Assembly (NCBI GenBank): GCA_018816525.1 | Contig: JAHIVV010000012.1 | Span: 2,253-66,252, forward strand | From: Elusimicrobiota bacterium | GTDB lineage: Bacteria; Elusimicrobiota; Endomicrobiia; CG1-02-37-114; XYA2-FULL-39-19 | DNA length: 64,000 nucleotides | Direction of reading: 5' to 3' | Shown: positions 2,803-61,670 of the stretch, in pieces | Numbering within the stretch: position 1 is the first letter of the stretch | How the letters are laid out: each line of letters begins with the position of its first letter | Position numbers and translations under genes: made by a program | Notes under the pieces: generated by a model | Told to the model about the DNA's origin: nothing | The model's database searches: none | The model's input: only the letters and a program-made list of their open reading frames with translations

Positions 2803-2806
2803 GCCC

Positions 2807-6623: not shown

Positions 6624-6633
6624 ACTCTCCCTG

Positions 6634-6692
6634 CCTCTCTTTCACAAAGAGAGGGGACAAGGAGCTCTCTTCCCCTCTTTTTGAAAGAGGGG
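6634..6692 (+). promoter_or_regulatory. two tandem perfect palindromic hairpins between batB and batC
   Basis: cctctctttcacaaagagagg (6634-6654) and cccctctttttgaaagagggg (6672-6692), each a 9-bp stem with a 3-nt loop, sitting just upstream of the batC SD. Confidence 0.4.
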
Positions 6693-6713
6693 ATTTAGGG
6701 GAGTTAATAAAAT

Positions 6714-7412: not shown

Positions 7413-7478
7413 AGACTGGTAAAGCGTGCTTGAGAAATCAGTTTTTTCACTCCCTTAGGTTTTTTTACGTTTAAAGTT

Positions 7479-13280: not shown

Positions 13281-13305
13281 TTTAAGGATTTAAAGGATCA
13301 TAAAA

Positions 13306-13581
13306 ATGGAACTAAAAAACTCAAGAGAAATACCGATAGGCGGCAAGATAACTGAAGCAGGAAACGCCGAGGAATACAATACGGGCGATTGGAGAACGTT
13401 TAAACCCGTTATTGACCAGAGCAAATGCACGAATTGTCTTTTTTGCTGGATGTATTGCCCGGATTCTTCAATCCTGATAAAGGATGCAAAAGTGACAGGA
13501 GTAGACTACAAACATTGTAAAGGGTGTGGAATTTGCGCTGAAGTATGCCCCAGAAAATGTATAAAAATGGAAAAAGGATAA
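13306..13581 (+). CDS. porD: pyruvate:ferredoxin oxidoreductase delta subunit (2x[4Fe-4S])
   Basis: CTNCLFCWMYCP and CKGCGICAEVCP motifs. Confidence 0.85.
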   Translation: MELKNSREIPIGGKITEAGNAEEYNTGDWRTFKPVIDQSKCTNCLFCWMYCPDSSILIKDAKVTGVDYKHCKGCGICAEVCPRKCIKMEKG

Positions 13582-13610
13582 AAATATCATAGGTATTTAA
13601 GAGGAAAAAA

Positions 13611-15739: not shown

Positions 15740-16320
15740 AGCTGCTTGCAATTTACGGTAGTCCTAGAAAAGACGGCAATTCAGATATTTTATTGGATGA
15801 AGCCTGGAAGGGCGCTGGGATTACCGCAGAAAAAGTTTATATCCGGGATTTAGATATAAAACCCTGTACCGGGTGCAGGTCATGTGATTCGACAGGCAAA
15901 TGTATAATTTCGGATGACATGGCGCAATTGTATAAAAAAATTGAGGAGGCAGATAGAATAATTCTATCGTCTCCTATTTTTTTCTACGGCTTGCCGGGGA
16001 AATTAAAAGGAATGGCGGACCGCGCCCAATGTTACTGGGTGAGAAAATATAAACTTAAATCAGGCCAGCCCAGGGCTGGGAAATTTGACAGAAAGCTTGG
16101 TTCATTTATTTGTGTAGGAGCCACCGCAGGCGAAAAATTATTTGACGGGGTAAAACTCACGGTCAAATATTTTTATGATGTTTTCAATATAGAGTATTTT
16201 TCAGAGCTTTTAGTAAGAAAAGTAGACAACAAAGGGGATATTTTAGCTACCAATTCCCCGAAAGAAGCGCAAGAGCTTGGCAGAAAACTTTGTGAACCCG
16301 TCCATCCTTCCCATTCCTAA
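15736..16320 (+). CDS. NADPH-dependent FMN reductase-like iron-sulfur flavoprotein
   Basis: Flavodoxin-like N-terminus MKLLAIYGSPRKDGNS plus Cys cluster CTGCRSCDSTGKC (Isf-like). Confidence 0.7.
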   Translation: MKLLAIYGSPRKDGNSDILLDEAWKGAGITAEKVYIRDLDIKPCTGCRSCDSTGKCIISDDMAQLYKKIEEADRIILSSPIFFYGLPGKLKGMADRAQCYWVRKYKLKSGQPRAGKFDRKLGSFICVGATAGEKLFDGVKLTVKYFYDVFNIEYFSELLVRKVDNKGDILATNSPKEAQELGRKLCEPVHPSHS

Positions 16321-29228: not shown

Positions 29229-29681
29229 TTAGAGTTGTTTCATTAGGGGGACTTCGTTACAGTCGGGGAAAATAGGGCATTTAATACAGTCTGTCCAGAC
29301 CTTGTGGGGCAATTTGTCTCTTGAAACTTCGTGATAGCCGAGTTTCTTAAAGAATTCCGGTATAAGCGTGAGAGCAAATACGTTTTTAACGCCGAGTTTT
29401 TTTGCTTCCTTGTGGCAGGTTTTCATAAGCTTGACTCCATAACCCTTGCCTTTGGTTTTAGTGTCAACAGCTAAAGAACGTATTTCAGCTAAATCTTCCC
29501 AGGTTACGTGAAGCCCGCAGCACCCGACTATCTTTTTGTTTTCTTCTACAACAAAGAAGTCAGATAAGTGGTCATAAATCTCGCTAAGCGCTTTGGAAAG
29601 CATTAACTTTTTATCAGCATAAGAATTTATTAATTTGTGCATTGAAGGCGCATCCTGAACTCTTGCTTTTCGAATTGTCAT
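29229..29681 (-). CDS. GNAT family N-acetyltransferase
   Basis: Acetyl-CoA binding motif (VDTKTKGKGYGVKLM). Confidence 0.75.
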   Translation of the reverse strand: MTIRKARVQDAPSMHKLINSYADKKLMLSKALSEIYDHLSDFFVVEENKKIVGCCGLHVTWEDLAEIRSLAVDTKTKGKGYGVKLMKTCHKEAKKLGVKNVFALTLIPEFFKKLGYHEVSRDKLPHKVWTDCIKCPIFPDCNEVPLMKQL

Positions 29682-30232
29682 AGGGGTTTTACTCCTGAAA
29701 TTCCTTTTTTGTAGGCTTCTATGTTTAATTTAACAAGTTCAGGTTTCTTGGAAAAAGTGTTATTTATCGCTTTGGATACGCTGTCAGACGAAATAATTTT
29801 TTTCACGCCTGTATAGGCTCCAAGCATTACCATATTCGCACAGCGTATATCGCCAAGTTCCTGGGCAATAGCCGTAGCTGGAATTTGAAATATTCCTGAA
29901 ATTCTATTTTTCAAATCCCGGGCTTCTTGTGAAATATCGATCAAGGAAGAATTTATTATCAACACTCCGTTACTTGTAAGCTTGGGCAGAAACTTAACTA
30001 ACGAGGGGGTATTCATGATAATCAGCGAGTTAGCGCAGCTGATTGTCGGAGAACCTATCTCTTCATCAGAGATTATTACAGTGCAGTTGGTTGTTCCGCC
30101 CCGGATCTCTGCGCCGTAACTTGGGTAAAAAGTTACGAACTTACCCTGCTCTACGGCAGATTCCGCAAGTATTTTTCCCAAGGCTAAAATTCCCTGGCCG
30201 CCTGCTCCTGCAATAAAAATTTCATCTTTCAT
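29678..30232 (-). CDS. 2-oxoacid:ferredoxin oxidoreductase gamma-subunit family protein (stand-alone)
   Basis: IFIAGAGGQGILALGKILAESA ... GAEIRGGTTNC, matching the POR/KOR/IOR gamma fold. Confidence 0.65.
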   Translation of the reverse strand: MKDEIFIAGAGGQGILALGKILAESAVEQGKFVTFYPSYGAEIRGGTTNCTVIISDEEIGSPTISCANSLIIMNTPSLVKFLPKLTSNGVLIINSSLIDISQEARDLKNRISGIFQIPATAIAQELGDIRCANMVMLGAYTGVKKIISSDSVSKAINNTFSKKPELVKLNIEAYKKGISGVKPL

Positions 30233-30285
30233 GTTTTAATTATATAATTTTGAAAATAGAAATGCAAAACAAATCCTCGGAAGGG

Positions 30286-30795
30286 TTACCATTTATCCCA
30301 GCGCACAATTTCCTCCAGGTTTTTTCTGTCCCGGGTATCCGGATTTTCTGCGGGATAACCGAGTGTGAGAAGTTCAACAACCTGAATGTCTTTTGGAATA
30401 CCCAGTATTTTTTTTACTTCATCTTTATAAAATGAGCCAATCCAGCAGGATCCCAGGCCTTCTTCTACAGCTTTTAGCGTCATATGATCAATTGCAATAG
30501 ATAAATCTACTGTGGTAGCTGGCTGTCCGCATCGCATTAAATATCCGTCATCCAGGCCGCAGCAGGCTATTACTACCGGCGCTTCCGAAACAAATGCCTG
30601 ATTATTTGCGGCTATGGATAATTTTTCCCTTGTTTGTTTATCTTGAACTACGATAAACTGCCATTCTTGCCGGTTTCGTGCTGATGGAGCCAGGCGGGCT
30701 GCTTCAAGGACAGAATTAAGTTTTTCTTTCTCAACAGGCTTGTTTTGATATTTTCTAATACTCCTGCGGTTTTTAATCGCTTCCATGACGTTCAT
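30286..30795 (-). CDS. nitroreductase family protein
   Basis: RRSIRKY N-terminal motif and nitroreductase fold, 169 aa. Confidence 0.8.
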   Translation of the reverse strand: MNVMEAIKNRRSIRKYQNKPVEKEKLNSVLEAARLAPSARNRQEWQFIVVQDKQTREKLSIAANNQAFVSEAPVVIACCGLDDGYLMRCGQPATTVDLSIAIDHMTLKAVEEGLGSCWIGSFYKDEVKKILGIPKDIQVVELLTLGYPAENPDTRDRKNLEEIVRWDKW

Positions 30796-38875: not shown

Positions 38876-40144
38876 TTGAAACCTCCTATATCTTTTAAAC
38901 TCATTCCACTGTCGCTTGCCCTTATTTTTTCAACTTCAGTTTTTACCTATCCAGTAGATGTTTATTTAAAACTCACTGCCAAAGGCGAAAAAATAAACAT
39001 AGGTTTGATTAGTTTTGGAGAAACTGAACTCGCAAAAAAAATTCAGGATGTGTTAAAAACAGACCTGCTATTTACCAGATATTTCAATGTTACCCCTATG
39101 CATGCTGCATTTACAGGCAAGAAAGAAGAATTTGATTACTTTAGGAACCAGTTTATTGATGTTATTCTCACCGGCAGTTTAAATACTGAAAATGCCCGCC
39201 GCACTTTAAACATAAAAATGTATAACGTTGAAAGCGGCGAACTGATGTTCGAAAAAAAATTCCAAGATTCAGGGAATGATTACCGCAGCAGCGCGCATAA
39301 TGTAAACGATGAAATAGTCCTGCGGTTTACCGGCCAACGAGGCATAGCGCATACAAAGGTTGTTTTTGTAAATGATTCTACTGGAAGCAAGGAAATATAT
39401 AAAATTGATTATGACGGCTATAATTTAAAAAGGCTTACCCAGGATGATTCAATAAACATTTTCCCGAAATGGTCAACTGACGGCGAAAAGATAGCGTTTA
39501 CAACCTATAAATACGGGAATCCTGATTTGTATGTTATGACTAACACCGGGACAAACAGGAGAGCAGTCTCCACATACCAGGGGTTGAATATTTCTCCAAC
39601 CTGGACTAATGACAACAATTCTATGGCTCTTACTGTTTCTAAAGGAAAATCACCAAATATTTATATTGAAAATTTGAGCGGGCAAATATTAAAACGCCTC
39701 ACGCATTCAACCGGCATAGATTCTTCTCCCTGTTTTTCTCCTAGTAACAGGGAGCTCGCTTTTATTTCAGACAGAGCTGGAATACCACAGCTTTACATTT
39801 GCGACAGTGAGGGCACGAATGTGCGCAGGATTATAACTGAGGGCTATAGTGATTCGCCTTCCTGGTCCCCAAAGGGCGACAAAATCACGTTCGCCATGCG
39901 TTTTGGCGCCGAAAGTTATTTTAATATTTATCTTTACGACATAGCTTCAGATAAAGCTGTCAGCCTTACTAACGGACAGGGGTCAAATGAAAACCCTTCA
40001 TTTTCTCCTGACGGCAGATTTATTGTATTTTCATCTACCAGAAACGGTAAAAAGGAATTATTCGTTATTTGCGTCGATGGTTCCGGTGAGCACAAGCTTG
40101 CGGATATAAAGAAAAATTCTATAATGCCTCATTGGTCACCCTAA
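38876..40144 (+). CDS. tolB: TolB-like periplasmic beta-propeller protein
   Basis: TTG start. Signal peptide, repeated propeller blades with SPxWSPDG-type motifs (PKWSTDG, SPTWTNDN, SPCFSPSN, SPSWSPKG, NPSFSPDG). Confidence 0.75.
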   Translation: MKPPISFKLIPLSLALIFSTSVFTYPVDVYLKLTAKGEKINIGLISFGETELAKKIQDVLKTDLLFTRYFNVTPMHAAFTGKKEEFDYFRNQFIDVILTGSLNTENARRTLNIKMYNVESGELMFEKKFQDSGNDYRSSAHNVNDEIVLRFTGQRGIAHTKVVFVNDSTGSKEIYKIDYDGYNLKRLTQDDSINIFPKWSTDGEKIAFTTYKYGNPDLYVMTNTGTNRRAVSTYQGLNISPTWTNDNNSMALTVSKGKSPNIYIENLSGQILKRLTHSTGIDSSPCFSPSNRELAFISDRAGIPQLYICDSEGTNVRRIITEGYSDSPSWSPKGDKITFAMRFGAESYFNIYLYDIASDKAVSLTNGQGSNENPSFSPDGRFIVFSSTRNGKKELFVICVDGSGEHKLADIKKNSIMPHWSP

Positions 40145-40146
40145 AT

Positions 40147-41310
40147 ATGAGTAAAATTTCCATAGTAAGATGTTCCGATTATAACGCCCAAAAGGTTGAA
40201 AAAGCCGTCCGGGAAGCTGTTTTGCTTGCCGGCGGGATTGAAAAATTCATTAAGAAAGGCGAAAGAGTCCTTCTTAAACCGAATTTGCTTGCGCCGAAAG
40301 CGCCCGCCCTGGCTGTAACCACGCATCCTGAAGTATTGAGAGCAGTAATACGTTTAGTAAAAGATGCCGGAGCTACTCCCTTTGTCGGTGATAGCCCCGG
40401 AGGAACTATAGTCGGTTCTTCCGGCAACAAAAGGGCGCTGGCTCTGCTGGATAAATATTGGGCTGACTGCGGGATGAAGAAAATATGCGAGGAAGAAGGA
40501 GCTGAAATAGTCAGCTTTGAAACCGGCGGTGTGGAAGTCTTTGAATTCAAAAATAGAAAAGGTGTTCCGAAGATAAATATATCAAAAGTTGCCCTCTCCT
40601 TTGACTCCGTAATTAATATACCAAAATTAAAAACCCACGGAATGGTTTTATACACAGGCGCCATAAAAAACTTATACGGCTGTGTACCGGGGCTTAAAAA
40701 AGCAGAATATCACATGCAGGCCGTTCATCCGGATGTTTTTTCACAAATACTTGTTGATATTTTTTCGGTTATTAAACCGAAACTGGCAATAATGGACGGC
40801 ATAATAGGAATGGACGGCAATGGCCCGTCTAATGGCAGGATAAAAAATTTCGGCGTTATTATTGCCGGCGGTGATAATGTGGCGTTGGATGCAGTCAGCA
40901 GTATGGTGATAGGACTTAATAGAAAAGAAATTTCCGCAATTAATATAGCCGGTAAACAGGGATTAGGGGAAGCAGATATAAAAAAAATTGAAGTGGTTGG
41001 CGAGAAACTTGAAAATGTTAAACAGGCTGATTTTGTTAGGCCGTCAAATTCTGCGTTGAAATACTTTCCTCAAATTTTTGCAAATATAGTCAGCAAATTG
41101 ATTTGGGTCCTGCCGAAAATTAATGAAACCAAATGTACCCGCTGCATGACCTGTGTTAAAAGTTGCCCGGCTAAGGCTATTGAAATGCACGGAAAAAACC
41201 TCAGGGTTGACATAAAAAAATGCATAAAGTGCATGTGCTGCCATGAGTTATGTACTTATGGCTCGATAGATATAGAGTTAAGCTGGCTGGCAAGCAAATT
41301 AGTAAAATGA
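40147..41310 (+). CDS. DUF362 domain iron-sulfur protein with C-terminal 2x[4Fe-4S] ferredoxin domain
   Basis: CTRCMTCVKSCP and CIKCMCCHELC motifs. Likely start at ATG 40147, just after the tolB stop. Confidence 0.7.
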   Translation: MSKISIVRCSDYNAQKVEKAVREAVLLAGGIEKFIKKGERVLLKPNLLAPKAPALAVTTHPEVLRAVIRLVKDAGATPFVGDSPGGTIVGSSGNKRALALLDKYWADCGMKKICEEEGAEIVSFETGGVEVFEFKNRKGVPKINISKVALSFDSVINIPKLKTHGMVLYTGAIKNLYGCVPGLKKAEYHMQAVHPDVFSQILVDIFSVIKPKLAIMDGIIGMDGNGPSNGRIKNFGVIIAGGDNVALDAVSSMVIGLNRKEISAINIAGKQGLGEADIKKIEVVGEKLENVKQADFVRPSNSALKYFPQIFANIVSKLIWVLPKINETKCTRCMTCVKSCPAKAIEMHGKNLRVDIKKCIKCMCCHELCTYGSIDIELSWLASKLVK

Positions 41311-47282: not shown

Positions 47283-47423
47283 ATGCCAAAGAATACGTTT
47301 CAACCAAACAAAAGACGCAGAGCAAAAACACACGGTTTTTTCGCAAGAATGTCCACACCTGGCGGGAAAAATGTTCTCAGCCGTAGAAGACAAAAAGGGC
47401 GCTGGAATCTTACCCCTAAATAA
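47283..47423 (+). CDS. rpmH: 50S ribosomal protein L34
   Basis: 46 aa [46 protein letters not shown], strongly similar to bacterial L34. Missed by the ORF track (under 60 aa). Confidence 0.85.
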
Positions 47424-47426
47424 TAG

Positions 47427-47819
47427 TTGTTTTCTATGAAACAGTTTACTTTCCGTAAAGAGGAAAGGCTGCATTTTGATAAAGAGTTCAGGCGCATTTT
47501 CAAAAAAGGAATAGCGCTGCGCAATTCCGGCATTCTGATGTTCGCCTACAAGCGCAATGAACCTGCGGAAAGCAAAATAAAGAATACGCGTTTAGGTTTG
47601 GTTATTTCCCGAAAAGCGGGCAGGGCAGTTGACAGAAACAGGCTAAAGCGCCAATTGAGGGAAATTTTCAGGCTGAATAAGCATACCCTAAAGCAGGATT
47701 TTGACATTGTTTTCATGGCCAAGGAAAAACTTGCTTCCTTTAAATACGATAGGCTTCAAAATATTGTATTTAACCTGTGGCAGCGCGCGAAGGTGCTTGA
47801 GCAGCAGGGCACTCTTTAA
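47427..47819 (+). CDS. rnpA: ribonuclease P protein component
   Basis: RnpA signature. Immediately after rpmH as in most bacteria. Confidence 0.85.
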
Positions 47820-47842
47820 ACCGAAATTTATTTTTAAAATAT

Positions 47843-48067
47843 ATGATCAAAACATTTTGTTTAAGCCTTATTAGAGCATACCAGATAATTGTCCGTTTTG
47901 TTTCACCTCTTCCCAGATGCAGATTCTACCCGACTTGTTCCGAATATACTTACCAGTCAATTGAAAATTCTGGAATAACAAAGGGAATATTTTTGGGAAC
48001 AAAAAGAATCTTTAAATGCCATCCTTTGCACCCCGGAGGTTACGACCCAGTATGGAAAAAAGAATAG
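47843..48067 (+). CDS. yidD: membrane protein insertion efficiency factor YidD
   Basis: YidD signature [10 protein letters not shown]. Confidence 0.85.
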
Positions 48068-49635
48068 TAGTAGCCACAGTTTTATCTACCCTTGTAATTT
48101 TAGCCTGGTGGATGTGGGTAACGCCGCCGGCAAAAATGTTACCGCCCCAGACACAAGCCCAGTCAGGAACCAAGCCGGCAGATCAGCCATGCGTGCTTTC
48201 CGGAAATGACGCAAGCCAGATGCCTGCAGTTGGCGTACCGGGCAAAGGCAATCAAAAAGCGGTCAAAGTAACCGATACAGTTCTTAAATTCAATTCATTT
48301 GAGGTTGTTTTTAACAGCCTGGGCGCAAAAATAAAAAATTGGTATGTCAAAGAAAAGGGAAATTGCCTTACAGACCTGGTTTATTATCCGGCAGATAATT
48401 CGTTTGTGCCGGACAATTTTGCAACTTTTAACAATTTAAATTTTAATGTTATCACACAAACCCAGGACAGTATTATTTTCTCCGCTGTTACCGACAATGT
48501 CCGCATAATTAAAACTTACGAATTATCCGAAACAGGGCTGCATAAACTTGAGTTTCAACTGACAAACCTTTCCAATAAAGAAAAAGTATTTCCTTTAAAT
48601 ATCCCCTGGGGCCCCGGAATCGGCAGCACGCCTTCTGACCAAAAAAGCGAAGTTGCGTTTACCCGGCTTATAGGGCTTGCCAAGATTACCGATAAATCAT
48701 CAAAAATTGTCAAACTTAAAGCGGATAGCCATAACACCAGGGCCTACAATTGGATAGGAATTGATAACAGGTATTTTTTAATGTCCGTTCTTTCAAACGA
48801 AAGTTTTTCCAAAGCTTTGGTGAATATTGATAAAACAGCTATCGGAAAACTGCCTAAAACTGATTTTGTTTCTACCGTAAAAATACCTGCAGGAAAAAGC
48901 GTTAGCATCGGCTTGTCTTTTTACCTGGGCCCGAAAGTTTATTCCGAGCTTAAAAAAACAGGCCACGGCCTGGACCAGAGCGTAGATTTCGGTTTTTTCA
49001 GCTCGCTGGGAAAGGGAGCGTTTTATTCCCTTCATTATTTTTACGATATCACAAAAAACTATGGTGTCGCAATAATTATACTTACGCTCATCATGCAGAT
49101 AGTCCTTTTTCCGCTTACCATGAAAAGTTACCAGGCGTCAAAGGCTATGAGAATTTTACAGCCGAAAATGAAAGAAATGCAGACAAAGTTTAAAGGAGAC
49201 CCGAAAAGATTAAATGTCGAAATGCTCAACCTGTATAAATCGCATAAAGTTAATCCGTTGAGCGGCTGCCTGCCTATGTTGTTGCAGCTGCCTATTTTCT
49301 GGGCTTTATACCAGACCTTGAGCAACACTTATGAATTAAGAAAGGCCCCGTTTATTTTCTGGATGACAGATTTATCAGCTCCGGATTTGCTTTTCACGGT
49401 TAGCGGAGTTCCTATCCGGGTCCTGCCGTTATTGATGGGGGGCGCGATGTTTTTTCAGCAGAAAGCTTCCGGTACAACGATGGACCCCTCGCAGAAAAGT
49501 TTGATGTATATGATGCCGATTATTTTTACCGTAATATTCTGGAATTTTGCCAGCGGCCTGGTTTTATACTGGCTGATTAACAGCATACTGACATTAGCCG
49601 GGCAATATATTGTTATGAGGCCGAAAGAGGCCTAA
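48016..49635 (+). CDS. yidC: membrane protein insertase YidC
   Basis: N-terminal TM, large periplasmic domain, conserved C-terminal 5-TM core. Confidence 0.9.
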
Positions 49636-49651
49636 AGAAAGAGGTAATAGT

Positions 49652-50332
49652 ATGAAAAAAATTGAAGCGGTTGAATTTGAAGGCAAGACTGCCGAAGAAG
49701 CAATAAAGAAAGGTTTAGAACAGCTGGGTTTAACAAAAGAGTCAGCGGATATCAAAATTATTGATGAAGGCGCTTCCGGTCTTTTCGGGCTGATGGGCTC
49801 CAAACCTGCAAGAATTAAAATACAACCCAGGGGCCATCAGGAAAAAGCGGATGAACGCCTTGAGAAATCTATCAAGGACCATCTTTATAAAATGTTCCAG
49901 CTTATGAGTTTTACCGAAGAGAAACCCGAAATAAATGTTTCCCAGTCGGAAGAATGTCTTGTAGAAGTAGAGTTTAAGGATAATAAATTAAGTTCGCTTC
50001 TTATAGGAAAAAACGGCAAGGTTTTAAGAGCCATAGAAATAGTCCTGCAGAGCATGCTCAATAAGGAATTCCGGGGAAAAATAGAATCCATCCCCAAAAT
50101 TCTTGTCGATGTAAACAAGTATACAGTCAGGCAGAAAGAAAAAATCAAAGAAGAAGTAAATGAAGCGCTGGAAACAGCTAAAAAATCAGGCAAACCCGTC
50201 AGATTAACTCCCATGCCTCCTCAACTGCGCAAATATGTCCATGTACTGCTTCAGGATAATCCTGATTTTGAAACGATTTCTGAAGGCGAAGATGAACAGC
50301 GCAGGATAGTAATTAAACCCAGAGAAGGCTGA
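49652..50332 (+). CDS. jag: Jag/KhpB RNA-binding protein (KH plus R3H domains)
   Basis: Jag N-terminus and C-terminal R3H region. Conserved position after yidC. Confidence 0.8.
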   Translation: MKKIEAVEFEGKTAEEAIKKGLEQLGLTKESADIKIIDEGASGLFGLMGSKPARIKIQPRGHQEKADERLEKSIKDHLYKMFQLMSFTEEKPEINVSQSEECLVEVEFKDNKLSSLLIGKNGKVLRAIEIVLQSMLNKEFRGKIESIPKILVDVNKYTVRQKEKIKEEVNEALETAKKSGKPVRLTPMPPQLRKYVHVLLQDNPDFETISEGEDEQRRIVIKPREG

Positions 50333-50347
50333 AGGTGTGATTAGAAC

Positions 50348-51805
50348 ATGGAAAATGATACCATTGTAGCTATTTCCACGCCAAATACGGGCGAAGGAGG
50401 CATTGGTATTATCAGGTTGAGCGGAAAAGGCTCGCTTTCCCTGGCGGACAAGATTTTCACCTCTGGAAAAAATACCGGCAAGCCCTCCCAATTTGAAACC
50501 CACACAATAAATTACGGCTGGATAACCGACGGTAAAACAAAAATAGACGAAGTCCTGCTAAGCGTAATGAAAGCTCCAAAAACCTATACCCGCGAGGATA
50601 TTGTTGAAATTTCTGCGCACGGGGGGCCGGCGGTTTTAAGGAAAATTCTTGAGCTTTGCCTCGCCTCCGGCGCCAGGATGGCCGGGCCCGGCGAATTTAC
50701 AAAACGCGCATTTTTAAACGGCAGAATAGATTTGTCCCAGGCGGAAGCTGTCAGCGAACTTATCCGCGCAAAAACTGATAAATCAGCGCGGTTTGCGGTT
50801 GAACAGGTTACAGGCGGGCTTTCACAAAAAATAAAGGGTTTGCGCTCGCAATTGATCAGCTTAATTGCAAATTTTGAAGTTGAACTGGATCATTCCGAGG
50901 AAGATATAAAGTTTGCCTCCGGAGAAGAAACAGAAAAGACCTTAAATAATATTTTAAAAGACATCGGCAATATAATAACTGCTTCGCAAAAAAACAGGGT
51001 ATATGTTGAAGGCGTGAAAATCGCTATAGCAGGAAAGCCCAATGTTGGCAAATCGAGCCTGTTTAACGCTGTTCTTGAAAAAGAACGGGCCATCGTCACA
51101 GCCCTGCCAGGAACTACACGCGATATTGTGGCGGAAACTTTTAACCTGCAGGGAATACCCGTTACCATTATGGATACAGCCGGCATAATGGCTGATTATT
51201 TACACGAGGGTAAAATAGAAATTCAGAGGCTGGAACAGCATATAGAAAAAATATCCACCCAAAAAGCCAGGGATGTACTGGGTAAAACGGACATTGTTCT
51301 TTTTGTAATTGATGTTACAGCCCTTCTTACAAACGACGATACTAAAATTGCGGAACTTGTTTCAAAAGCTGCGGTTAAAGTAATCTTTGTTTTAAATAAA
51401 ACTGATTTAGTTACAAATACGGAACAAAAAAGAAAAGAGATTTTAGAAAAATTCAGGCCATATTTTGATAAAATATATTTTACGGAGTGTTCAGCGTTAA
51501 AGATGGATGGTATCACCGGGCTTGAAAATGCAATATATGATAAAATTCTTGAAGAAAAAGCTTATTCTAACGCTCCTGATACGGCTGACAGCGAATTTGT
51601 TGTCAATCTCAGGCAGGAAGAGGCGTTAAATAAAGCGTGCGTTAATATTAAAAGTGCATCGCAAACTGTCCGAAAAGGCGAATCCGGGGAATTTACTGTG
51701 CTGTCAGTGCGCAGCGCGCTGGATAATTTAGGTGAAATAACCGGTGAAACCACTAATGAAGAAATACTGGATATAATATTTTCAAAATTTTGCGTAGGGA
51801 AATAA
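50348..51805 (+). CDS. mnmE: tRNA modification GTPase MnmE/TrmE
   Basis: G1 motif GKPNVGKSS, G3 DTAG, C-terminal CVGK. Confidence 0.9.
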   Translation: MENDTIVAISTPNTGEGGIGIIRLSGKGSLSLADKIFTSGKNTGKPSQFETHTINYGWITDGKTKIDEVLLSVMKAPKTYTREDIVEISAHGGPAVLRKILELCLASGARMAGPGEFTKRAFLNGRIDLSQAEAVSELIRAKTDKSARFAVEQVTGGLSQKIKGLRSQLISLIANFEVELDHSEEDIKFASGEETEKTLNNILKDIGNIITASQKNRVYVEGVKIAIAGKPNVGKSSLFNAVLEKERAIVTALPGTTRDIVAETFNLQGIPVTIMDTAGIMADYLHEGKIEIQRLEQHIEKISTQKARDVLGKTDIVLFVIDVTALLTNDDTKIAELVSKAAVKVIFVLNKTDLVTNTEQKRKEILEKFRPYFDKIYFTECSALKMDGITGLENAIYDKILEEKAYSNAPDTADSEFVVNLRQEEALNKACVNIKSASQTVRKGESGEFTVLSVRSALDNLGEITGETTNEEILDIIFSKFCVGK

Positions 51806-55720: not shown

Positions 55721-56914
55721 ATGGCGACTTTAAAAATAACATTAATTCTTCTTTTTCTGATTTTATGGATTAAACGTAAGCAGGACCTGGGCGCAGGGCT
55801 GCTAATAGGTTCTTTTGTGCTTGGTATTTTAAGCGCAGGGTTTTTTGACGTGTTAAAGTTTATGTTCCGGTCGGTTTACGCTACCGACACCATTGATTTA
55901 ATTGTCGTAATGATCCTGATTTTTTATTTCATTGAAATTTGGAGCAAGACCGGCGGCACAGCATCGCTTTGCAAAAATTTAAACCATGTAATAAAGGATT
56001 CGCCTGTGGCGCTTGTAATCCCTCCGGCAATAATCGGGCTTATTCCGATAATGGGCGGGGCGATGGTATCCGCTCCTTTAGTTAAGGATTCCTTTTACGC
56101 GAAAAATGTTTCACCCGCAAAACAGACTTTCCAGAACTTCTGGTTCAGGCATATCTGGGAGTATGCAATTCCCACCTATCCCGGGGTAATTATTTCAGCA
56201 GGGATTCTCGGCGTATCCTACGGTAAAGTTTTTGCCCTGAATTTTCCCTTAACTATTTTTGCAATAATAATCGGCTCGATAGTAGGCCTGACAGGCATTA
56301 AATACAGGAAGCCCGATTTGTTAAATAATGATACAAGCGGCATAAAAGGACTGCTGGTAGCGTTCTTGCCTCTTTTTGTAATTTTGGTGCCGGCCCTGGT
56401 TTTTAAAGTTCCGCTGTTTCTTTCATTGGCAATTTCCATAATTCTTATGGCGCTTGTAAATAAAATAAGCATCCCCCGGCTTAATGGCCTATTTATAAAA
56501 AGTTTTAATTTTAATATAATCAGCGTTGTAGTAGGCATTATGGCTTTCAAATACGTCATGGAAGACACTGGGGTAATAGTGCAGATGTCCAGGGAATTCA
56601 TCAGCTGGAAAATCCCTGTTTTGTTATTATTGTTTTTACTCCCGTTTATTACAGGTTTTATTACGGGAATTACGCAGGCGTTTGTGGCTATTTCATTTCC
56701 GCTTCTTATAAATTATCTCAGCGCAGATAACAACCTGCTTACCTGGGCTTATGTATCGGGTTATATGGGGGTCCTGCTTTCACCCGTCCATGTATGCCTG
56801 GTCCTGACGAAAGAGTATTTTGGCGCATCCTGGAAAGATGTTTATAAAATACTGATAATCCCGTGCCTGTTCATGCTGGCAGCGGCTTTTTTCATAATCA
56901 AAATCAGAGGATAA
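55721..56914 (+). CDS. polytopic membrane protein (DUF401-like / putative transporter)
   Basis: 397 aa, about 10 to 12 TM segments. No diagnostic motif recognised. Confidence 0.4.
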   Translation: MATLKITLILLFLILWIKRKQDLGAGLLIGSFVLGILSAGFFDVLKFMFRSVYATDTIDLIVVMILIFYFIEIWSKTGGTASLCKNLNHVIKDSPVALVIPPAIIGLIPIMGGAMVSAPLVKDSFYAKNVSPAKQTFQNFWFRHIWEYAIPTYPGVIISAGILGVSYGKVFALNFPLTIFAIIIGSIVGLTGIKYRKPDLLNNDTSGIKGLLVAFLPLFVILVPALVFKVPLFLSLAISIILMALVNKISIPRLNGLFIKSFNFNIISVVVGIMAFKYVMEDTGVIVQMSREFISWKIPVLLLLFLLPFITGFITGITQAFVAISFPLLINYLSADNNLLTWAYVSGYMGVLLSPVHVCLVLTKEYFGASWKDVYKILIIPCLFMLAAAFFIIKIRG

Positions 56915-57043
56915 ATAAAACAATAATTGGAGGCTAAGCAGTAGATATATCAAAAAAATTACAAGGCATATTATTACAAGTAACGACGCAAAAGAAATGA
57001 TAAAAGATACTGCCTATAGATTGGCAAAAAAGGCTTATAAATT

Positions 57044-58255
57044 ATGAGTAAAACAATCGATGAAATAAACGAAAAAATCAAGAAAGGCCAGGCTGTTATA
57101 GTTACCGCTGAAGAAATGATAGATATCGTGGAACAAAAAGGCGCCGCTAAAGCAGCTCAGGAAGTGGATGTGGTCACAACAGGCACTTTCGGGCCCATGT
57201 GTTCCAGCGGCATGTATTTAAATCTGGGGCATTCAAAACCAAGAATAAAAATAGGAGGCGGGAGCTGTTATTTAAATGACGTTCCGGCATATTGCGGTTT
57301 CGCCGCAGTTGATATTTACCTGGGTTGCACCCAAACGCCGGATTTTGACCCGAGAAATGCGGATTATCCCGGCGATTTCAGGTATGGCGGCGGCCATGTT
57401 ATAGAAGAATTTGTTGCAGGTAAAGACATACGGCTTGTTGCTATGGCTTATGGCACAGATTGCTACCCCAGAAAAAAACTTGAAACCCTTGTAAATATAA
57501 AAGACGTTAATGAAGCAGTATTGTTCAATCCGAGAAATGCTTATCAAAATTACAATGTAGCAGTAAACCTTTCGGATAAAGTTATTTACACCTACATGGG
57601 GACTCTGCGGCCAAAATTGGGTAATGCAAATTATTGCAGCGCCGGCCAGTTGTCGCCGCTTTTAAATGACCCTCTTTTTAAAACTATCGGCATAGGAACA
57701 AGGTTGTTTTTGGGCGGCGGTATCGGTTATGTAGCATGGAACGGCACCCAGCATAATCCTCACGTAAAACGAAAAGAAAACGGTACTCCCTGCGTGCCTG
57801 CCGGAACGCTTGCGCTGATAGGGGATTTAAAACAAATGAAATCCGGATGGCTCGTTGGGGCAAGTTTTCAGGGCTACGGCGCTACTTTAAATGTCGGCGT
57901 CGGAATACCGATTCCGATCCTAAATGAAGAAATGGCAAAATACACTGCTGTCAAAGATGACGCTATATTTGCCCCGGTTGTAGATTACAGCGAAAATTAC
58001 CCGAAAATGATTCCCGGAAATCTCGGCGAAGTTTCTTATGCGCAATTAAAATCAGGCAAAATAACTGTCCAGGGAAAAGAAGTCCCCTCAGGGTCGCTTT
58101 CAAGTTATTCAAAAGCCAGAGAAATTGCGGAAGTCTTGAAAGACTGGATTGTGAAAAAGCAATTTTTTCTTTCAGAACCTGTCGCGCCTCTGCCTGGGCC
58201 TGATTCAATCACCACTTTTAAGGCCATGCATGAGAGGCTCGGGGCAAAAGGATAA
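57044..58255 (+). CDS. DUF39 (COG1900) homocysteine-biosynthesis sulfur-incorporation enzyme homolog
   Basis: 403 aa. DUF39-like architecture with a conserved Cys-containing N-terminal half (GTFGPMCSSGMYLN...GGGSCYLNDVPAYCGF). Confidence 0.65.
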   Translation: MSKTIDEINEKIKKGQAVIVTAEEMIDIVEQKGAAKAAQEVDVVTTGTFGPMCSSGMYLNLGHSKPRIKIGGGSCYLNDVPAYCGFAAVDIYLGCTQTPDFDPRNADYPGDFRYGGGHVIEEFVAGKDIRLVAMAYGTDCYPRKKLETLVNIKDVNEAVLFNPRNAYQNYNVAVNLSDKVIYTYMGTLRPKLGNANYCSAGQLSPLLNDPLFKTIGIGTRLFLGGGIGYVAWNGTQHNPHVKRKENGTPCVPAGTLALIGDLKQMKSGWLVGASFQGYGATLNVGVGIPIPILNEEMAKYTAVKDDAIFAPVVDYSENYPKMIPGNLGEVSYAQLKSGKITVQGKEVPSGSLSSYSKAREIAEVLKDWIVKKQFFLSEPVAPLPGPDSITTFKAMHERLGAKG

Positions 58256-58263
58256 GGTATCCG

Positions 58264-58671
58264 ATGTTCACAAAAAGAGTCATAATGAGATATCCCACAA
58301 AACTGGTTGATAAGCCGATAGTAAGCAAGCTTGTCAAAGAGTTCCATCTTGATTTTAATATTTTAAAAGCGTCAGTAACACCCAATGAAGAAGGGGTGTT
58401 AGTTCTTGAGCTGATCGGCGACCGCAAGAATTACAATAAAGCAATGGATTATCTGAAAGGCTTAAACGTAACCATACAGCCTTTTAAGCATGATATAATC
58501 CGCAATGAAAAAAAATGTACCCATTGCGGGGCCTGTGTTGTAGCCTGCCCAGCGGAAGCATTAATAGTAGAAACCAAAAGCAGAAAAATTATTTTCGATG
58601 AGAAAAAGTGTATAGCCTGCGAACTTTGCATACCTATCTGCCCGGTCCGCGCTATGGAAATGCATTATTAA
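58264..58671 (+). CDS. NIL-domain protein fused to 2x[4Fe-4S] ferredoxin (MA1822-like)
   Basis: NIL domain (VLVLELIGD) followed by CTHCGACVVACP and CIACELCIPICP. Confidence 0.7.
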   Translation: MFTKRVIMRYPTKLVDKPIVSKLVKEFHLDFNILKASVTPNEEGVLVLELIGDRKNYNKAMDYLKGLNVTIQPFKHDIIRNEKKCTHCGACVVACPAEALIVETKSRKIIFDEKKCIACELCIPICPVRAMEMHY

Positions 58672-58675
58672 AGCC

Positions 58676-59419
58676 ATGGTTTATGAACCCCGTTTTTACC
58701 GCGATTGGACGCTTTCGGAAACCGAAAGCGATTTAGCCTCTTTTGAAGCAATAGTTAAGGAAACCGACCTTTTTATCCGCGTTAGTTCCGCTAAAAAAAA
58801 CCTTCAGAAAAAAGCCATAAATTCAATTCTGAAATACCGCCGGTCAATCGAGAAATATATTTCCCGCCATCCTGAATTTTTAAAAGCGCTGGCGCCGGTT
58901 ACCCTGGAAAAAGATGCCCCCTCAATAATCAAAGATATGATTGAGTGCGCAAAAACCTGCAATGTAGGCCCTATGGCATCTGTTGCCGGGGCTATTGCGC
59001 AGTATGCAGGCAATGATTTGCTCGCCTATTGCGATGAAGTGATTGTAGAAAACGGGGGAGATATTTTTATCAAGACGAATAAAAAAAGGCTGGTAGGAGT
59101 TTATGCCGGCAGTTCAGTATTTACAAAAAAAATTGCACTTGAAATCCTTCCGGAAAAGACCCCGCTTGGGATCTGCGCTTCTTCTGGAACCGTGGGACCC
59201 AGTTTAAGTTTCGGCAAAGCGGACGCAGTTATAATTGTTGCGCGTTCAGCTATCTTGGCTGACGCTGCGGCCACAACCGTAGGCAATGCAATCAATGAAG
59301 TATCCGATATACCAAAGGGATTGGACCTTGCCAAAACAATTAAAGGAATTAAAGGCGTCATTATTATCAAGAACGACAAACTGGGCGCCTGGGGCGAGGT
59401 AAAAATTACAGTTTGTTAG
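58676..59419 (+). CDS. UPF0280-family protein
   Basis: 247 aa, UPF0280/ApbE-like fold features. Tightly linked (4-nt gap) to the NIL-ferredoxin gene. Confidence 0.5.
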   Translation: MVYEPRFYRDWTLSETESDLASFEAIVKETDLFIRVSSAKKNLQKKAINSILKYRRSIEKYISRHPEFLKALAPVTLEKDAPSIIKDMIECAKTCNVGPMASVAGAIAQYAGNDLLAYCDEVIVENGGDIFIKTNKKRLVGVYAGSSVFTKKIALEILPEKTPLGICASSGTVGPSLSFGKADAVIIVARSAILADAAATTVGNAINEVSDIPKGLDLAKTIKGIKGVIIIKNDKLGAWGEVKITVC

Positions 59420-59484: not shown

Positions 59485-60051
59485 TTAGAATGATACTTTT
59501 GGAACTGTTTTAGCAACTTCTTCCGCTTTAAAGTAAGCATCCTTCTTTTGGAAGCCGCCCATAGAAGCAACTATATTGCTTGGAAAACGCTGAACTAAAA
59601 TATTGTAAATCCGGACAACTTCATTGTATCTTTGTCTTTCAACGGAAATCCTGTTTTCAGTTCCTTCAAGAGAGTCCTGCAATCTGATGAAATTCTCGTT
59701 TGCCTTTAATTGAGGATAATTTTCCGCAATCATTAGCAGGCGGGAAACCGCGCTGTCCAGTTCGCCGGTAGCTTTTACTTTGTCATTGGTTGTTTTTGCG
59801 CCGATTAATTTTGCCCTGGCTTCTGCAACGCGCGTGAATATTTCATTTTCATGTTTTGCATAGCCTTTTACCGTGTTTATCAGGTTCGGTATAAGGTCAA
59901 GCCTTCTCTGGTACTGGTTTTCTACCTGGGCCCAGGATGCGTTGATGCTTTCGTTAAGCGTTACAAACTTATTAAAATAAGAAGCGTACATCCCGCCGAC
60001 AATTACTACAACGCCTACAATCACTCCTAAAACAATCCACACTTGTTTCAT
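59485..60051 (-). CDS. lemA: LemA family protein
   Basis: N-terminal TM plus conserved LemA helical region (AQVENQYQRRLDLIPNLINTVKGYAKHE). Confidence 0.85.
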   Translation of the reverse strand: MKQVWIVLGVIVGVVVIVGGMYASYFNKFVTLNESINASWAQVENQYQRRLDLIPNLINTVKGYAKHENEIFTRVAEARAKLIGAKTTNDKVKATGELDSAVSRLLMIAENYPQLKANENFIRLQDSLEGTENRISVERQRYNEVVRIYNILVQRFPSNIVASMGGFQKKDAYFKAEEVAKTVPKVSF

Positions 60052-60102
60052 TTTATCCTCCAGTATTTTTGAGTCGGACGAAACCCTGAAAATCCTTTCA
60101 AA

Positions 60103-60816
60103 TTATTTTCGGGGTACCATAAAACTACCTACAAAATCAATAACTTTTTCAATCTCATTTAAATAAGAGTTGAACAAAACTTCTATCTCAACTTTTTGTG
60201 CCGCCTTGTCGCCTTCCTTAATTTTAGAAACAGTTATAAAAGGTTCAGTATTAATTCTTACCTGCTTGGATAACATGCTTAAAGCGTCAATTTTTTTCGG
60301 CGGCGGTACCTGGCCGGTTAAGCGTAGGACATTCCTGAAAAGAACAAGAAAAGTTGAAATTGAGTTTATCAACAATTCTTTGATTTCTGATTGTTTGCCT
60401 TTAGTTGCCATAAACTCTTGGCAAAGTTTGAGGTATTTGCTTTTAAGCTCGTGTTCGCACTCATGGCGCAGGTTTGAAGAAACAATTTCCATGTTAACAA
60501 AGGGGTTTTCGCCGTAAAGGATTTTGTGATGCTCTTTCATATCGAGGAATTCTATGGGAAAAACGTCAAATGATTCCTCGAATTGATTGCAGGTAAAGAT
60601 GACTGGTACAGAATTATTGCTTTTTATCCACTTGTTCACAGGTTTTTGAAGTAATTTTAGTTCAGTAAATCCAAAATTTTCCAATGTAAGCAGTAAATTA
60701 TAGTCAGAACGTTTTTTTACCGCCTCTCCGCTTGCCTGGGACCCGTAAAGTACTATTGATTTTAGGTTTGAACCCAGTGTGTTTTTTAGTTCTTCAACAA
60801 ATTTTGTAAGTTCCAT
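60103..60816 (-). CDS. nucleotidyltransferase-fold protein (minimal NTase with GS...D motif plus helical C-terminal domain)
   Basis: IVLYGSQASGEAVKKRSDYNLLL resembles the Pol-beta NTase hG[GS]x9-13Dh[DE]h motif with the second acidic residue replaced by N. Likely start is ATG 60814-60816 (SD AAAGAGGTG 4 nt upstream), not the TTG at 60837 used by the track. Confidence 0.4.
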   Translation of the reverse strand: MELTKFVEELKNTLGSNLKSIVLYGSQASGEAVKKRSDYNLLLTLENFGFTELKLLQKPVNKWIKSNNSVPVIFTCNQFEESFDVFPIEFLDMKEHHKILYGENPFVNMEIVSSNLRHECEHELKSKYLKLCQEFMATKGKQSEIKELLINSISTFLVLFRNVLRLTGQVPPPKKIDALSMLSKQVRINTEPFITVSKIKEGDKAAQKVEIEVLFNSYLNEIEKVIDFVGSFMVPRK

Positions 60817-60829
60817 TGTCACCTCTTTC

Positions 60830-60866
60830 ATACCCAATGCCAGTCGCTTGGAAGACTATTGGGTAT
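60830..60866 (-). promoter_or_regulatory. conserved SD-adjacent hairpin element, copy C (intercistronic, TPM to NTase gene)
   Basis: mRNA sense ATACCCAAT-AGTCTTCCAAGCGACT-GGC-ATTGGGTAT followed by GAAAGAGGTGACAATG. Confidence 0.5.
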
Positions 60867-60884
60867 ATTTTCCCCTCCATGTTT

Positions 60885-61670
60885 TTACCAGCCTCTCGAT
60901 GCTCCACCGCCACCGCTTGAGCCTCCGCCGAATCCTCCCCAGCCGCCTCCTCCGCCGAATCCTCCGCCACCGCCTCTTCCTCCGGAAAATAGCACGTTAA
61001 GCAGCAGGAAAAAAAACAGCCCAGGGTGAAAAATCATCAGGTAAAGCAGGATAAGAAATATTATTGCGATAAAAATAATGTTTGCTAAACCTAATTTGAG
61101 CGGGGGATAACTATTTTGAGCAAGAGTTGGGATTGCGGTGTTTTCAGGTATTAAACCGTTACTAAGATCAACATTGTATTCTTTTGCTACTAGCAAGGCT
61201 ATTCCGTAAACGCCTCCCAATATTCCTTGTCCGGTATCACCCTGTTTAAAGAAGGGAATAACAGCCTTGTCCAGGATTTCACCGCAGAGCCCATCCGGTA
61301 AAGCTCCTTCCAGCCCGTAACCAACTTCAATGCGCAATTTCCGGTCTTCTGACGCTATAAGGAAAAGAATGCCGTTATTTTTATCTTTCTTCCCTATTTT
61401 CCACTTTTCAAATAATTTTACGGAATAGTCTTCAATAGCGAGGCCGTTAAGATTTTTAACCGTTACTACCGCAACTTCTGCGGAAGTTTTTTGTTCGATT
61501 TCGGCCGCAATTTTATTGATTTGTAATTGTGTTTCAGAAGGTATTATCTGGGCGAAATCGGATACCCAGCCCTGCGGGCGGGGTGTATCTAAAACGCAGC
61601 TTTGTGGGAAAGCTGAAGCTGTTAAAGATAATAAAAATGTATAAGCCAACAAATATTTTCTCATTCGCAC
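60885..61670 (-). CDS. TPM-domain (DUF477, YgcG-like) protein with Gly-rich C-terminal tail
   Basis: Signal peptide, TPM phosphatase-like domain, TM segment, GGRGGGGGFGGGGGWGGFGGG tail. Confidence 0.8.
   Translation of the reverse strand: MRMRKYLLAYTFLLSLTASAFPQSCVLDTPRPQGWVSDFAQIIPSETQLQINKIAAEIEQKTSAEVAVVTVKNLNGLAIEDYSVKLFEKWKIGKKDKNNGILFLIASEDRKLRIEVGYGLEGALPDGLCGEILDKAVIPFFKQGDTGQGILGGVYGIALLVAKEYNVDLSNGLIPENTAIPTLAQNSYPPLKLGLANIIFIAIIFLILLYLMIFHPGLFFFLLLNVLFSGGRGGGGGFGGGGGWGGFGGGSSGGGGASRGW

Follow-up and report, generated by a model that had tools for sequence, protein, structure and literature searches.

The 64-kb window (the whole stretch of 64,000 nucleotides analysed, from an Elusimicrobiota bacterium) contains, according to its ORF list, three plus-strand open reading frames in the same orientation at 57044–58255 (gene 1), 58264–58671 (gene 2), and 58676–59419 (gene 3). 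Inspection of the sequence placed the TAA stop codon of gene 1 at 58253–58255, separated by an 8-nt spacer (GGTATCCG) from the ATG of gene 2 at 58264. Between the TAA stop codon of gene 2, at 58669–58671, and the ATG of gene 3 at 58676 lie 4 nt (AGCC). The original prediction had reported these three genes, with a UPF0280 gene starting 4 nt after gene 2, and its positions were exact to the base. The 8-nt and 4-nt gaps suggest that genes 1–3 are co-transcribed and translationally coupled.

Upstream of gene 1 lies an AT-rich operon leader of 129 nt (56915–57043, plus strand), which is presumed to be the promoter region. Rfam gave no riboswitch match to the leader at the gathering threshold and none at E ≤ 1 over 56700–57200, the predicted RNA fold of the leader was no better than that of shuffled sequences (z = −0.37), and comparison with the leader of an 88%-identical Elusimicrobia relative (L004) revealed no meaningful conservation. 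Control of the operon by a SAM, methionine, or T-box element was rejected on these three grounds. As no methionine- or SAM-responsive element was found upstream, regulation does not tie the operon to methionine. Promoter-like matches were not enriched (6 found, 10.1 expected), and the counts from both the terminator and the promoter scans were at or below shuffle expectation, with no convincing signals; a terminator-like site at 57291–57309, inside gene 1, was taken as a chance occurrence. The upstream DUF401/TIGR00529 membrane gene (55721–56914) and the downstream LemA gene were both considered as possible parts of the module and rejected, each being found near DUF39 in 0 of 80 reference loci.

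[quoted passage not shown] The profile search against PF01837 (HcyBio) gave E = 5e-153 and 509.5 bits, with residues 17–376 covering the whole profile (1–349 of 349), in agreement with the predicted DUF39/COG1900 identity and length. The Pfam name of PF01837 is now "Homocysteine biosynthesis enzyme, sulfur-incorporation". Public records carry related names: an NCBI entry 100% identical to gene 1, from an Elusimicrobia MAG (GCA_043819315.1), is called "homocysteine biosynthesis protein", and JGI relatives are called "L-aspartate semialdehyde sulfurtransferase". A sequence search of the PDB found no solved structure for DUF39.

Two cysteines of gene 1, C53 (in TFGPMCSSG) and C140 (in YGTDCYPR), were invariant in 24 of 24 close homologs. 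Both were also kept in the L-ASST-like representatives of 50%-identity clusters, including the CBS-bearing representative P0242, and were lost in distant paralogs. P0242, together with numbering arithmetic, served as a stand-in for a direct alignment with MA1821 of Methanosarcina acetivorans. By this arithmetic, which takes account of an offset and of a loop that is, on balance, 10 residues shorter in the CBS-type representative, C53 and C140 would correspond to Cys54 and Cys131 of MA1821. In PMC12068725, L-ASST is identified as MA1821-22, the two cysteines are described as almost universal in COG1900a, and the C54A variant is described as non-functional; Cys54 is essential and Cys131 is not.

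P0242 (504 amino acids) carries two CBS domains and is 55% identical to gene 1 over its full length. A Pfam search found no CBS domain in gene 1, which ends about 25 residues past the DUF39 domain. The CBS pair is confined to the L-ASSTs of methanogens and is not a defining feature of the bacterial DUF39 members, and its absence is Desulfovibrio-like: M. jannaschii and D. alaskensis have been contrasted on CBS presence, and the Dde_3007-type bacterial DUF39 is without it (PMC4045070).

Since genes of the PF01837 superfamily include MMP16 (ComF, COG1900d), a synthase that makes coenzyme M from sulfoacetaldehyde by aldehyde-to-thiol chemistry with ferredoxin-type clusters, gene 1 was also considered as a COG1900 paralog with another substrate, which together with gene 2 would form a different thiol, for example a coenzyme M-like one, from a different aldehyde. 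L-ASST, too, may have activities besides its main one (PMC12068725), and distant DUF39 paralogs lacking both cysteines do exist. However, the MMP16 model TIGR03287 scored gene 1 at only 109.7 bits, far short of its cutoff of 363.95, and in MMP16 a ferredoxin is inserted in the COG1900 domain and the cysteines lie elsewhere and are non-essential (PMC12068725), whereas the alignment showed no inserted ferredoxin domain in gene 1; the representative P0390, in contrast, has a Cys-rich insertion. Identity with MMP16/coenzyme M synthase was rejected on the score and the missing insert. With both COG1900a cysteines present and the similarity to P0242, whose domain layout (DUF39 plus CBS) is that of archaeal L-ASST, the sequence supports assignment of gene 1 to the COG1900a homocysteine (L-ASST) type rather than the MMP16 type, and a different thiol product appears very improbable. 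It is further disfavored by the 69–73% identity of gene 1 to the DUF39 proteins of Dehalococcoidia, including that of a Dehalococcoides mccartyi MAG, which occur in the published gene arrangement.

Gene 2 (58264–58671, plus strand; 135 amino acids) is an MA1822-like NIL plus 2x[4Fe-4S] ferredoxin, a putative electron donor and possibly a methionine sensor. The Pfam search identified NIL (PF09383, residues 5–71, E = 2.3e-16) and Fer4 (E = 7.3e-14, in two stretches), and two CxxCxxCxxxCP motifs are present, CTHCGACVVACP at residues 85–96 and CIACELCIPICP at 116–127. All eight cysteines of the protein fall inside these two cluster motifs, and the predicted kinship with MA1822 was thereby borne out. 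Public gene callers place the start of gene 2 at 58285, giving a protein of 128 amino acids. Because the alignments with homologs start at residues 1–4 of the 135-residue form, and a start codon is aligned with 58264 in 38 of 63 homologous loci, 58264 is the better start. NIL is a methionine-binding domain type, and NIL and CBS have been proposed as methionine and SAM sensors, respectively (PMC12068725); the presence of NIL in gene 2 is another point against a product other than homocysteine.

Gene 3 (58676–59419, plus strand; 247 amino acids) belongs to the UPF0280/COG2122/PF27030 family of ApbE-like proteins, which includes MA1715, DvMF_0044, and DVU1097 and for which a role as sulfur-trafficking helper has been proposed. 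The family named in the original prediction was recovered with the NCBIfam UPF0280 model NF003323 (PRK04334) at 302.4 bits, above the cutoff of 271, and precomputed annotation lists PF27030 (AbpE_bact) as its Pfam family. The family matches of all three genes are far stronger than chance would give. A search with the single sequence found the structure of DVU1097 (PDB 2o34) at E = 5e-33, a profile search found it at 2.2e-55, and superposition of the AF2 model of gene 3 (pLDDT 81) on 2o34 gave a TM-score of 0.78–0.83 at ~30% identity. Judged from this model, gene 3 shares the fold of DVU1097, with ApbE as no more than a distant structural relative. Residue C167, within a GxCxSxGT motif, was invariant in 24 of 24 homologs and aligned with a cysteine in 2o34. 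A literature search for DVU1097 returned nothing.

The names given to gene 3 and its relatives in public databases vary. The exact protein is listed by NCBI as "UPF0280 family protein" (GCA_043819315.1), and JGI relatives are called "ApbE superfamily uncharacterized protein (UPF0280 family)", which we take to be the name of COG2122. The ortholog in RIFOXYA2_FULL_39_19 is named "thiamine biosynthesis protein ApbE", and in the fold search the ApbE/Ftp/FmnB FAD:protein FMN transferases, which have their core fold in common with gene 3, were the sole structural relatives besides DVU1097 (E about 1e-6, TMq 0.50–0.62, TMt 0.41–0.51, 9–17% identity). Both the name and the fold would fit an ApbE-type flavin transferase that attaches flavin to some other protein, unrelated in function to genes 1 and 2, and adjacent to them by chance or through co-expression. 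At the sequence level, however, similarity to ApbE was undetectable: Pfam reported no match to PF02424 in gene 3, and a PDB search with a profile of 24 sequences found no ApbE chain at E ≤ 0.1. Gene 3 is also 60–80 residues shorter than ApbE and has the invariant C167. Membership of gene 3 in ApbE was rejected, as it is unsupported by sequence and distant by fold, with about half of ApbE covered.

The arrangement of the three genes was surveyed in 80 reference genome loci with DUF39, of which 58 had room for all three genes, with 1900 nt or more of sequence downstream. In 56 of the 67 loci with room for it, the NIL-ferredoxin gene was the next gene after DUF39. DUF39, NIL-ferredoxin, and UPF0280 followed one another in the same order in 24 of all 80 loci, spread over at least four phyla (19 of the 58 with room). 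Most of these were Chloroflexota loci, and 17 of the 21 Chloroflexota loci with room had the trio, which was also present in the D. mccartyi MAG (L021) and in L004. The gap between the NIL-ferredoxin and UPF0280 genes was not conserved, with 4 nt here, 318 nt in L004, and about 450 nt in L021. The survey supports the three genes as a recurrent module. The linkage of UPF0280, which had been put forward as a notable addition, is real and recurrent; it is not new, having been published under the name COG2122 (PMC4045070, PMC5764234).

This recurrence also bears on the flavin transferase reading. In most phyla the family of gene 3 is not linked to DUF39, as in the majority of Omnitrophota, Planctomycetota, and Desulfobacterota loci; this would be expected if its function lay elsewhere, and the recurring trio order argues against chance adjacency. 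In Desulfovibrio vulgaris Miyazaki, moreover, COG2122 is unlinked to DUF39, and yet mutants in DUF39, NIL/ferredoxin, and COG2122 are all methionine auxotrophs, and the fitness of COG2122 mutants correlates with that of DUF39 mutants at r = 0.98 across 170 experiments (PMC5764234; Price et al., 2018). A flavin transferase function unconnected with genes 1 and 2 is for these reasons very unlikely.

Taken together, the operon is very probably a three-gene route to homocysteine, formed directly from aspartate semialdehyde and sulfide as in other anaerobes. The locus itself contributes to this reading the gene order and spacing, the protein families, the conserved cysteines and cluster motifs, the fold predicted for gene 3, and a synteny that recurs in other genomes. 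From the literature come the genetic requirement for all three proteins in Desulfovibrio vulgaris, the substrate pair of aspartate semialdehyde and sulfide, the finding that Cys54 is essential, and the phenotype of MA1715 in sulfide assimilation.

We considered that the three proteins would act as follows. Gene 1 would take up aspartate-4-semialdehyde and exchange the aldehyde oxygen for sulfur by means of its core cysteine C53, the presumed equivalent of the essential Cys54 of MA1821. A thioaldehyde or hemithioacetal-type intermediate would then be reduced to the thiol of homocysteine, with the two [4Fe-4S] clusters of gene 2 relaying the electrons. The NIL domain of gene 2 probably binds methionine and would so allow feedback control. 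Gene 3, with its ApbE-like fold, may assist the delivery of sulfide or persulfide sulfur to gene 1, a chemical role we infer. Homoserine and O-acylhomoserine would be bypassed as intermediates. The ultimate source of electrons here may be reduced ferredoxin from 2-oxoacid:ferredoxin oxidoreductases. The window contains POR, POR_N, PFOR_II, and TPP_enzyme_C genes at 12702–15739 and a second POR-gamma gene at 29678–30232, which is consistent with the PFOR/ferredoxin-based metabolism anticipated in the original prediction.

Among the roughly 60 genes of the 64-kb window, none belongs to a canonical route, and metA/X/Y/B/E/H are all absent from it. An alternative reading accepts the module as real but not as the sole or main route to homocysteine: the organism would also have a canonical O-acylhomoserine route, with the operon as a parallel route favored by abundant sulfide, for which Methanosarcina acetivorans is the model. 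In that archaeon, a second, orthogonal pathway leaves the L-ASST deletion without a methionine phenotype (PMC12068725), and cysteine gave partial rescue of D. vulgaris mutants, which hints at another, minor route (PMC5764234). D. vulgaris Miyazaki, however, appears to be without a well-characterised methionine pathway and needs the DUF39 pathway genes in minimal medium (PMC5764234), and the absence of canonical genes from the window points in the same direction. A parallel role is thus the less probable reading, but one that keeps appreciable weight. It concerns the physiological weight of the module and not its biochemistry. A canonical pathway elsewhere in the genome would not refute the function of the operon, because M. 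acetivorans has both routes (PMC12068725).

The preferred reading, a direct route from aspartate semialdehyde and sulfide, means that this uncultured Elusimicrobia lineage probably makes homocysteine without passing through homoserine. The observation is correct but already described, as publications from 2014 to 2018 cover the pathway, the three components, and the way they cluster in bacteria. Recognition of the L-ASST route here should keep metabolic reconstructions from scoring the lineage falsely as a "methionine auxotroph", and public annotation still leaves gene 3 as a "UPF0280 family protein" without a pathway assignment. Work with purified L-ASST has been described as ongoing (PMC12068725), and in the open literature examined we found no in vitro reconstitution. 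Compact operons without CBS domains are reasonable material for work on L-ASST biochemistry, such as which sulfur species is used, how many electrons are needed, what COG2122 does, and what the structure looks like. As a tentative idea, and one more likely to be wrong than right, the CBS-less enzyme found here and in Chloroflexota could be an obligate three-subunit complex, in which Cys167 of gene 3 captures sulfide as a persulfide and passes it to Cys53 of the DUF39 protein. If this were so, COG2122 would gain a defined chemical role, and the compact operon would be convenient for reconstituting L-ASST in vitro and solving its structure for the first time.

Comparison with the M. acetivorans system (MA1821-MA1822 together with MA1715; work of Rauch et al. 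from 2014, 2016, and 2017, via PMC5764234 and PMC12068725) revealed a COG1900a protein with two cysteines, adjoined by a NIL plus ferredoxin protein, as in the operon described here. The substrates of L-ASST are aspartate semialdehyde and sulfide, and MA1715, a COG2122 helper in sulfide assimilation of the same family as gene 3, is described as a sulfur-trafficking protein (PMC12068725). MA1821 has a C-terminal CBS pair for SAM regulation, whereas gene 1 is without it, and L-ASST is dispensable in M. acetivorans by virtue of the second methionine route. The locus number of MA1715 suggests that it is encoded at a distance from MA1821-22, whereas gene 3 is adjacent here. MA1715 also serves SepCysS-dependent cysteine synthesis, a function not known to bear on this operon.

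D. vulgaris Miyazaki F (DvMF_1464, DvMF_0262, and DvMF_0044; PMC5764234) has the same three families, and its bacterial DUF39 is probably without CBS, as suggested by the related Dde_3007 (PMC4045070). There, all three genes are genetically required for methionine, homoserine is no intermediate, and homoserine dehydrogenase mutants were rescued by threonine alone (PMC5764234). Judging by their locus tags, the D. vulgaris Miyazaki F genes are scattered, whereas the genes here are contiguous. The DVU1097 protein of D. vulgaris Hildenborough (2o34) corresponds to gene 3 in fold, at about 30% identity.

A matching gene arrangement occurs in Chloroflexota. DUF39 orthologs were reported in 2014 to adjoin ferredoxin and COG2122 often (PMC4045070), and DET0921:DET0919 have been cited as the pathway genes of Dehalococcoides (PMC5764234); the wording of that paper and the layout of L021 suggest that DET0919 is the COG2122 gene. 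Dehalococcoides and the Chloroflexota loci have the same order of DUF39, NIL-ferredoxin, and UPF0280 on one strand as the operon described here, and the Chloroflexota proteins are 69–76% (DUF39) and about 60% (UPF0280) identical to those of the window. L021 differs in its wider spacing before UPF0280 and in its phylum, Chloroflexota as opposed to Elusimicrobia.

Three plus-strand open reading frames lie at exactly the coordinates of the original prediction, which had proposed a methanogen-type sulfide-dependent homocysteine module with a linked UPF0280 gene at 57044-59419. They encode a DUF39/COG1900 protein (gene 1, 57044-58255, 403 aa), a NIL-ferredoxin (gene 2, 58264-58671, 135 aa), and a UPF0280 protein (gene 3, 58676-59419, 247 aa). 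The spacers read from the sequence are 8 nt between genes 1 and 2 and 4 nt (AGCC) between genes 2 and 3, and the three genes are presumably co-transcribed. Profile searches confirmed all three family assignments: gene 1 covered the whole PF01837 profile (E=5e-153), which now carries the name 'HcyBio, Homocysteine biosynthesis enzyme, sulfur-incorporation'; gene 2 matched the NIL domain (E=2.3e-16) and two Fer4 stretches; and gene 3 scored 302 bits (cutoff 271) on the UPF0280 model NF003323 (PRK04334).

[quoted passage not shown] An MMP16 identity for gene 1 was rejected, as the protein's score on the MMP16 model was 110 bits, far short of the cutoff of 364, and it carries no ferredoxin insertion. 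C53 and C140 of gene 1 were invariant among 24 close homologs. The whole DUF39 family comprises only ~1,000 members (clusters at 50% identity) in the representative library; when 13 full-length, diverse representatives were aligned, both cysteines were kept in the L-ASST-like ones and lost in more distant paralogs. The former include a 504-aa protein with the archaeal L-ASST architecture (DUF39 plus two CBS domains), which is 55% identical to the gene 1 protein. The numbering would fit that of MA1821 if the N-terminus is offset by one residue and a loop of the CBS-type form is shorter by a net 10 residues. Despite the enzymatic role assigned to the DUF39/HcyBio family, no solved structure for it was detectable by sequence search in the 2026 PDB copy.

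All eight cysteines of gene 2 fall in two canonical CxxCxxCxxxCP motifs. Public gene calls place its start at 58285, giving 128 aa; however, homologs align from residues 1-4 of the 135-aa form onward, and a start codon is aligned with 58264 in 38 of 63 homologous loci, whereas an ATG is aligned with 58285 in only 2. The longer form is therefore favored, and the true start is probably 58264, the deposited one being 7 codons too short. The idea of the NIL domain as a methionine sensor, and of the CBS pair as a SAM sensor, has been stated (PMC12068725), and gene 2 may be subject to such NIL-based regulation.

Gene 3 found no match in the Pfam copy used, and precomputed annotations assign it to PF27030 ('AbpE_bact'), a more recent Pfam family. 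Among solved structures it is closest to 2o34, 'protein DVU1097 from Desulfovibrio vulgaris Hildenborough, Pfam DUF375', with E=5e-33 for the single sequence and 2.2e-55 for a 24-sequence profile. An AlphaFold2 model of gene 3 (pLDDT 81, pTM 0.83) superimposed on 2o34 with a TM of 0.78-0.83. The only other structural relatives were the ApbE/Ftp/FmnB flavin transferases (TMq 0.50-0.62, 9-17% identity), with a fold match spanning about half of ApbE; by sequence, ApbE was not detected in the Pfam search or with the 24-sequence profile against the PDB. C167, located in a G-x-C-x-S-x-G-T motif, was invariant among 24 homologs and aligned with a cysteine of DVU1097.

A single scan of species-representative genomes yielded 80 loci with DUF39 proteins 68-88% identical to gene 1, spanning Chloroflexota, Omnitrophota, Desulfobacterota, Planctomycetota, Elusimicrobia, and other phyla. 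The NIL-ferredoxin gene lies directly 3' of DUF39 in 56 of the 67 loci with room for it. The full trio, in the order DUF39, NIL-ferredoxin, UPF0280, recurs in 24 of all 80 loci, in 19 of the 58 with at least 1900 nt downstream, and in 17 of 21 when only Chloroflexota are counted. It is also found in a Dehalococcoides mccartyi MAG (L021), an 88%-identical Elusimicrobia relative (L004, RIFOXYA2_FULL_39_19), one Deltaproteobacteria MAG (L005), and one Omnitrophota MAG (L045). The gap between genes 2 and 3 is 4 nt in the window (58671-58676) but 318 nt in L004 (4611-4930) and ~450 nt in L021 (7780-8234), so the tight coupling of gene 3 is not conserved within the trio. DUF39 itself is unusually conserved across phyla, the window protein being 68-79% identical to Chloroflexota, Omnitrophota, Planctomycetota, Desulfobacterota, and other homologs; gene 3 identity drops to ~60% outside Elusimicrobia, where its named relatives are almost all Dehalococcoidia/Chloroflexota. 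Together, these two patterns hint at a possible transfer of the linked trio between Chloroflexota and Elusimicrobia.

Upstream, a DUF401/TIGR00529 membrane-protein gene (55721-56914) is separated from gene 1 by a 129-nt AT-rich gap, and downstream a LemA gene (59485-60051, minus strand) converges on the operon. Both were placed outside the module because neither was ever found near DUF39 in other genomes of the 80-locus scan. The convergent minus-strand stretch (59485-61670) also encodes a TPM-domain protein whose C-terminal tail is Gly-rich and a 244-aa protein that weakly matched a nucleotidyltransferase domain; these two genes are likewise unlinked to DUF39 elsewhere. No riboswitch or conserved leader tying the operon to methionine was found upstream of gene 1. 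The DUF39 leader of L004 (~2790-2920) contains about three tandem copies of a ~45-nt unit with AAAGGATRTCAGGACGCTACCC followed by a T-rich stretch, a repeat not present in the window's leader.

Elsewhere in the window, a c-di-GMP-I riboswitch aptamer (RF01051, 61876-61973, plus strand; 61.4 bits, gathering score 35, E=1.4e-09) precedes by ~135 nt a long ORF that runs from 62108 past the window end (at least 630 aa in the window). On the full contig this ORF reaches 1130 aa and shows a weak Por_Secre_tail (T9SS sorting domain) match and faint fn3 matches. The arrangement points to a large secreted or surface protein under c-di-GMP control in an Elusimicrobia genome. The plus strand also carries a complete 'aerotolerance' (Bat) type operon (MoxR-AAA, DUF58, VWA (BatA, BatB), TPR, BatD, TPR; 1813-10039), a multi-subunit 2-oxoacid:ferredoxin oxidoreductase (POR gamma; POR_N + PFOR_II; TPP_enzyme_C) followed by an FMN reductase (12702-16320), and the string rpmH-rnpA-yidD-yidC-jag-mnmE (47283-51805), which adjoins the replication origin in many bacteria. 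A second, isolated POR-gamma gene adjoins a nitroreductase gene (29678-30795, minus strand), and a DUF362 + 4Fe-4S protein is encoded at 40132-41310.

The COG1900a cysteines, the NIL domain with two ferredoxin motifs, the UPF0280 model, and the recurrent trio support the homocysteine-module interpretation, and the operon very probably encodes an L-ASST plus helper. DUF39 would use Cys53 to put sulfur in place of the aldehyde oxygen in aspartate semialdehyde, and the NIL-ferredoxin would feed reducing electrons through its two [4Fe-4S] clusters. The 2-oxoacid:ferredoxin oxidoreductases whose genes lie in the window (12702-15739; 29678-30232) could supply reduced ferredoxin, and the COG2122 protein may help sulfur delivery. 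A stronger proposal, in which the ApbE-like protein would be translationally coupled and would serve as an obligate subunit relaying sulfur via Cys167, appears unlikely; if true, it would mainly offer a handle on the missing biochemistry and structure of L-ASST. No canonical methionine genes were found in the rest of the 64-kb window, and the bypass of O-acylhomoserine sulfhydrylase implied by the original prediction is a possibility for this organism. A canonical route alongside the operon would not refute its function, since M. acetivorans has both (PMC12068725).

The substrates and genetic requirement proposed here are by analogy with homologs. Homocysteine formation in D. alaskensis needs DUF39, whose orthologs often have an adjacent or fused ferredoxin and an adjacent COG2122 gene (Kuehl et al., 2014, PMC4045070). 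In D. vulgaris Miyazaki, methionine rescues DUF39, NIL/ferredoxin, and COG2122 mutants, the fitness values of COG2122 and DUF39 are correlated (r=0.98), and the pathway does not pass through homoserine (Price et al., 2018, PMC5764234). The methanogen work (Rauch 2014, 2016, 2017; Allen 2015), as relayed in PMC4045070, PMC5764234, and PMC12068725, established aspartate semialdehyde and sulfide as substrates, Cys54 as essential, the presence of a persulfide on MA1821, and a need for the COG2122 protein MA1715 in efficient sulfide assimilation. Like the Desulfovibrio DUF39, the gene 1 protein has no CBS domains (PMC4045070). Genes 1 and 3 are 100% identical to the NCBI entries 'MAG: homocysteine biosynthesis protein [Elusimicrobia bacterium]' and 'MAG: UPF0280 family protein [Elusimicrobia bacterium]', and the locus is also present on JBDREY010000052.1 (GCA_043819315.1) and on a 67,768-nt ENA metagenome contig. 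The proteins are thus already annotated and the system is already known: because UPF0280 is COG2122, the three-gene module is the textbook form of the pathway under another name.
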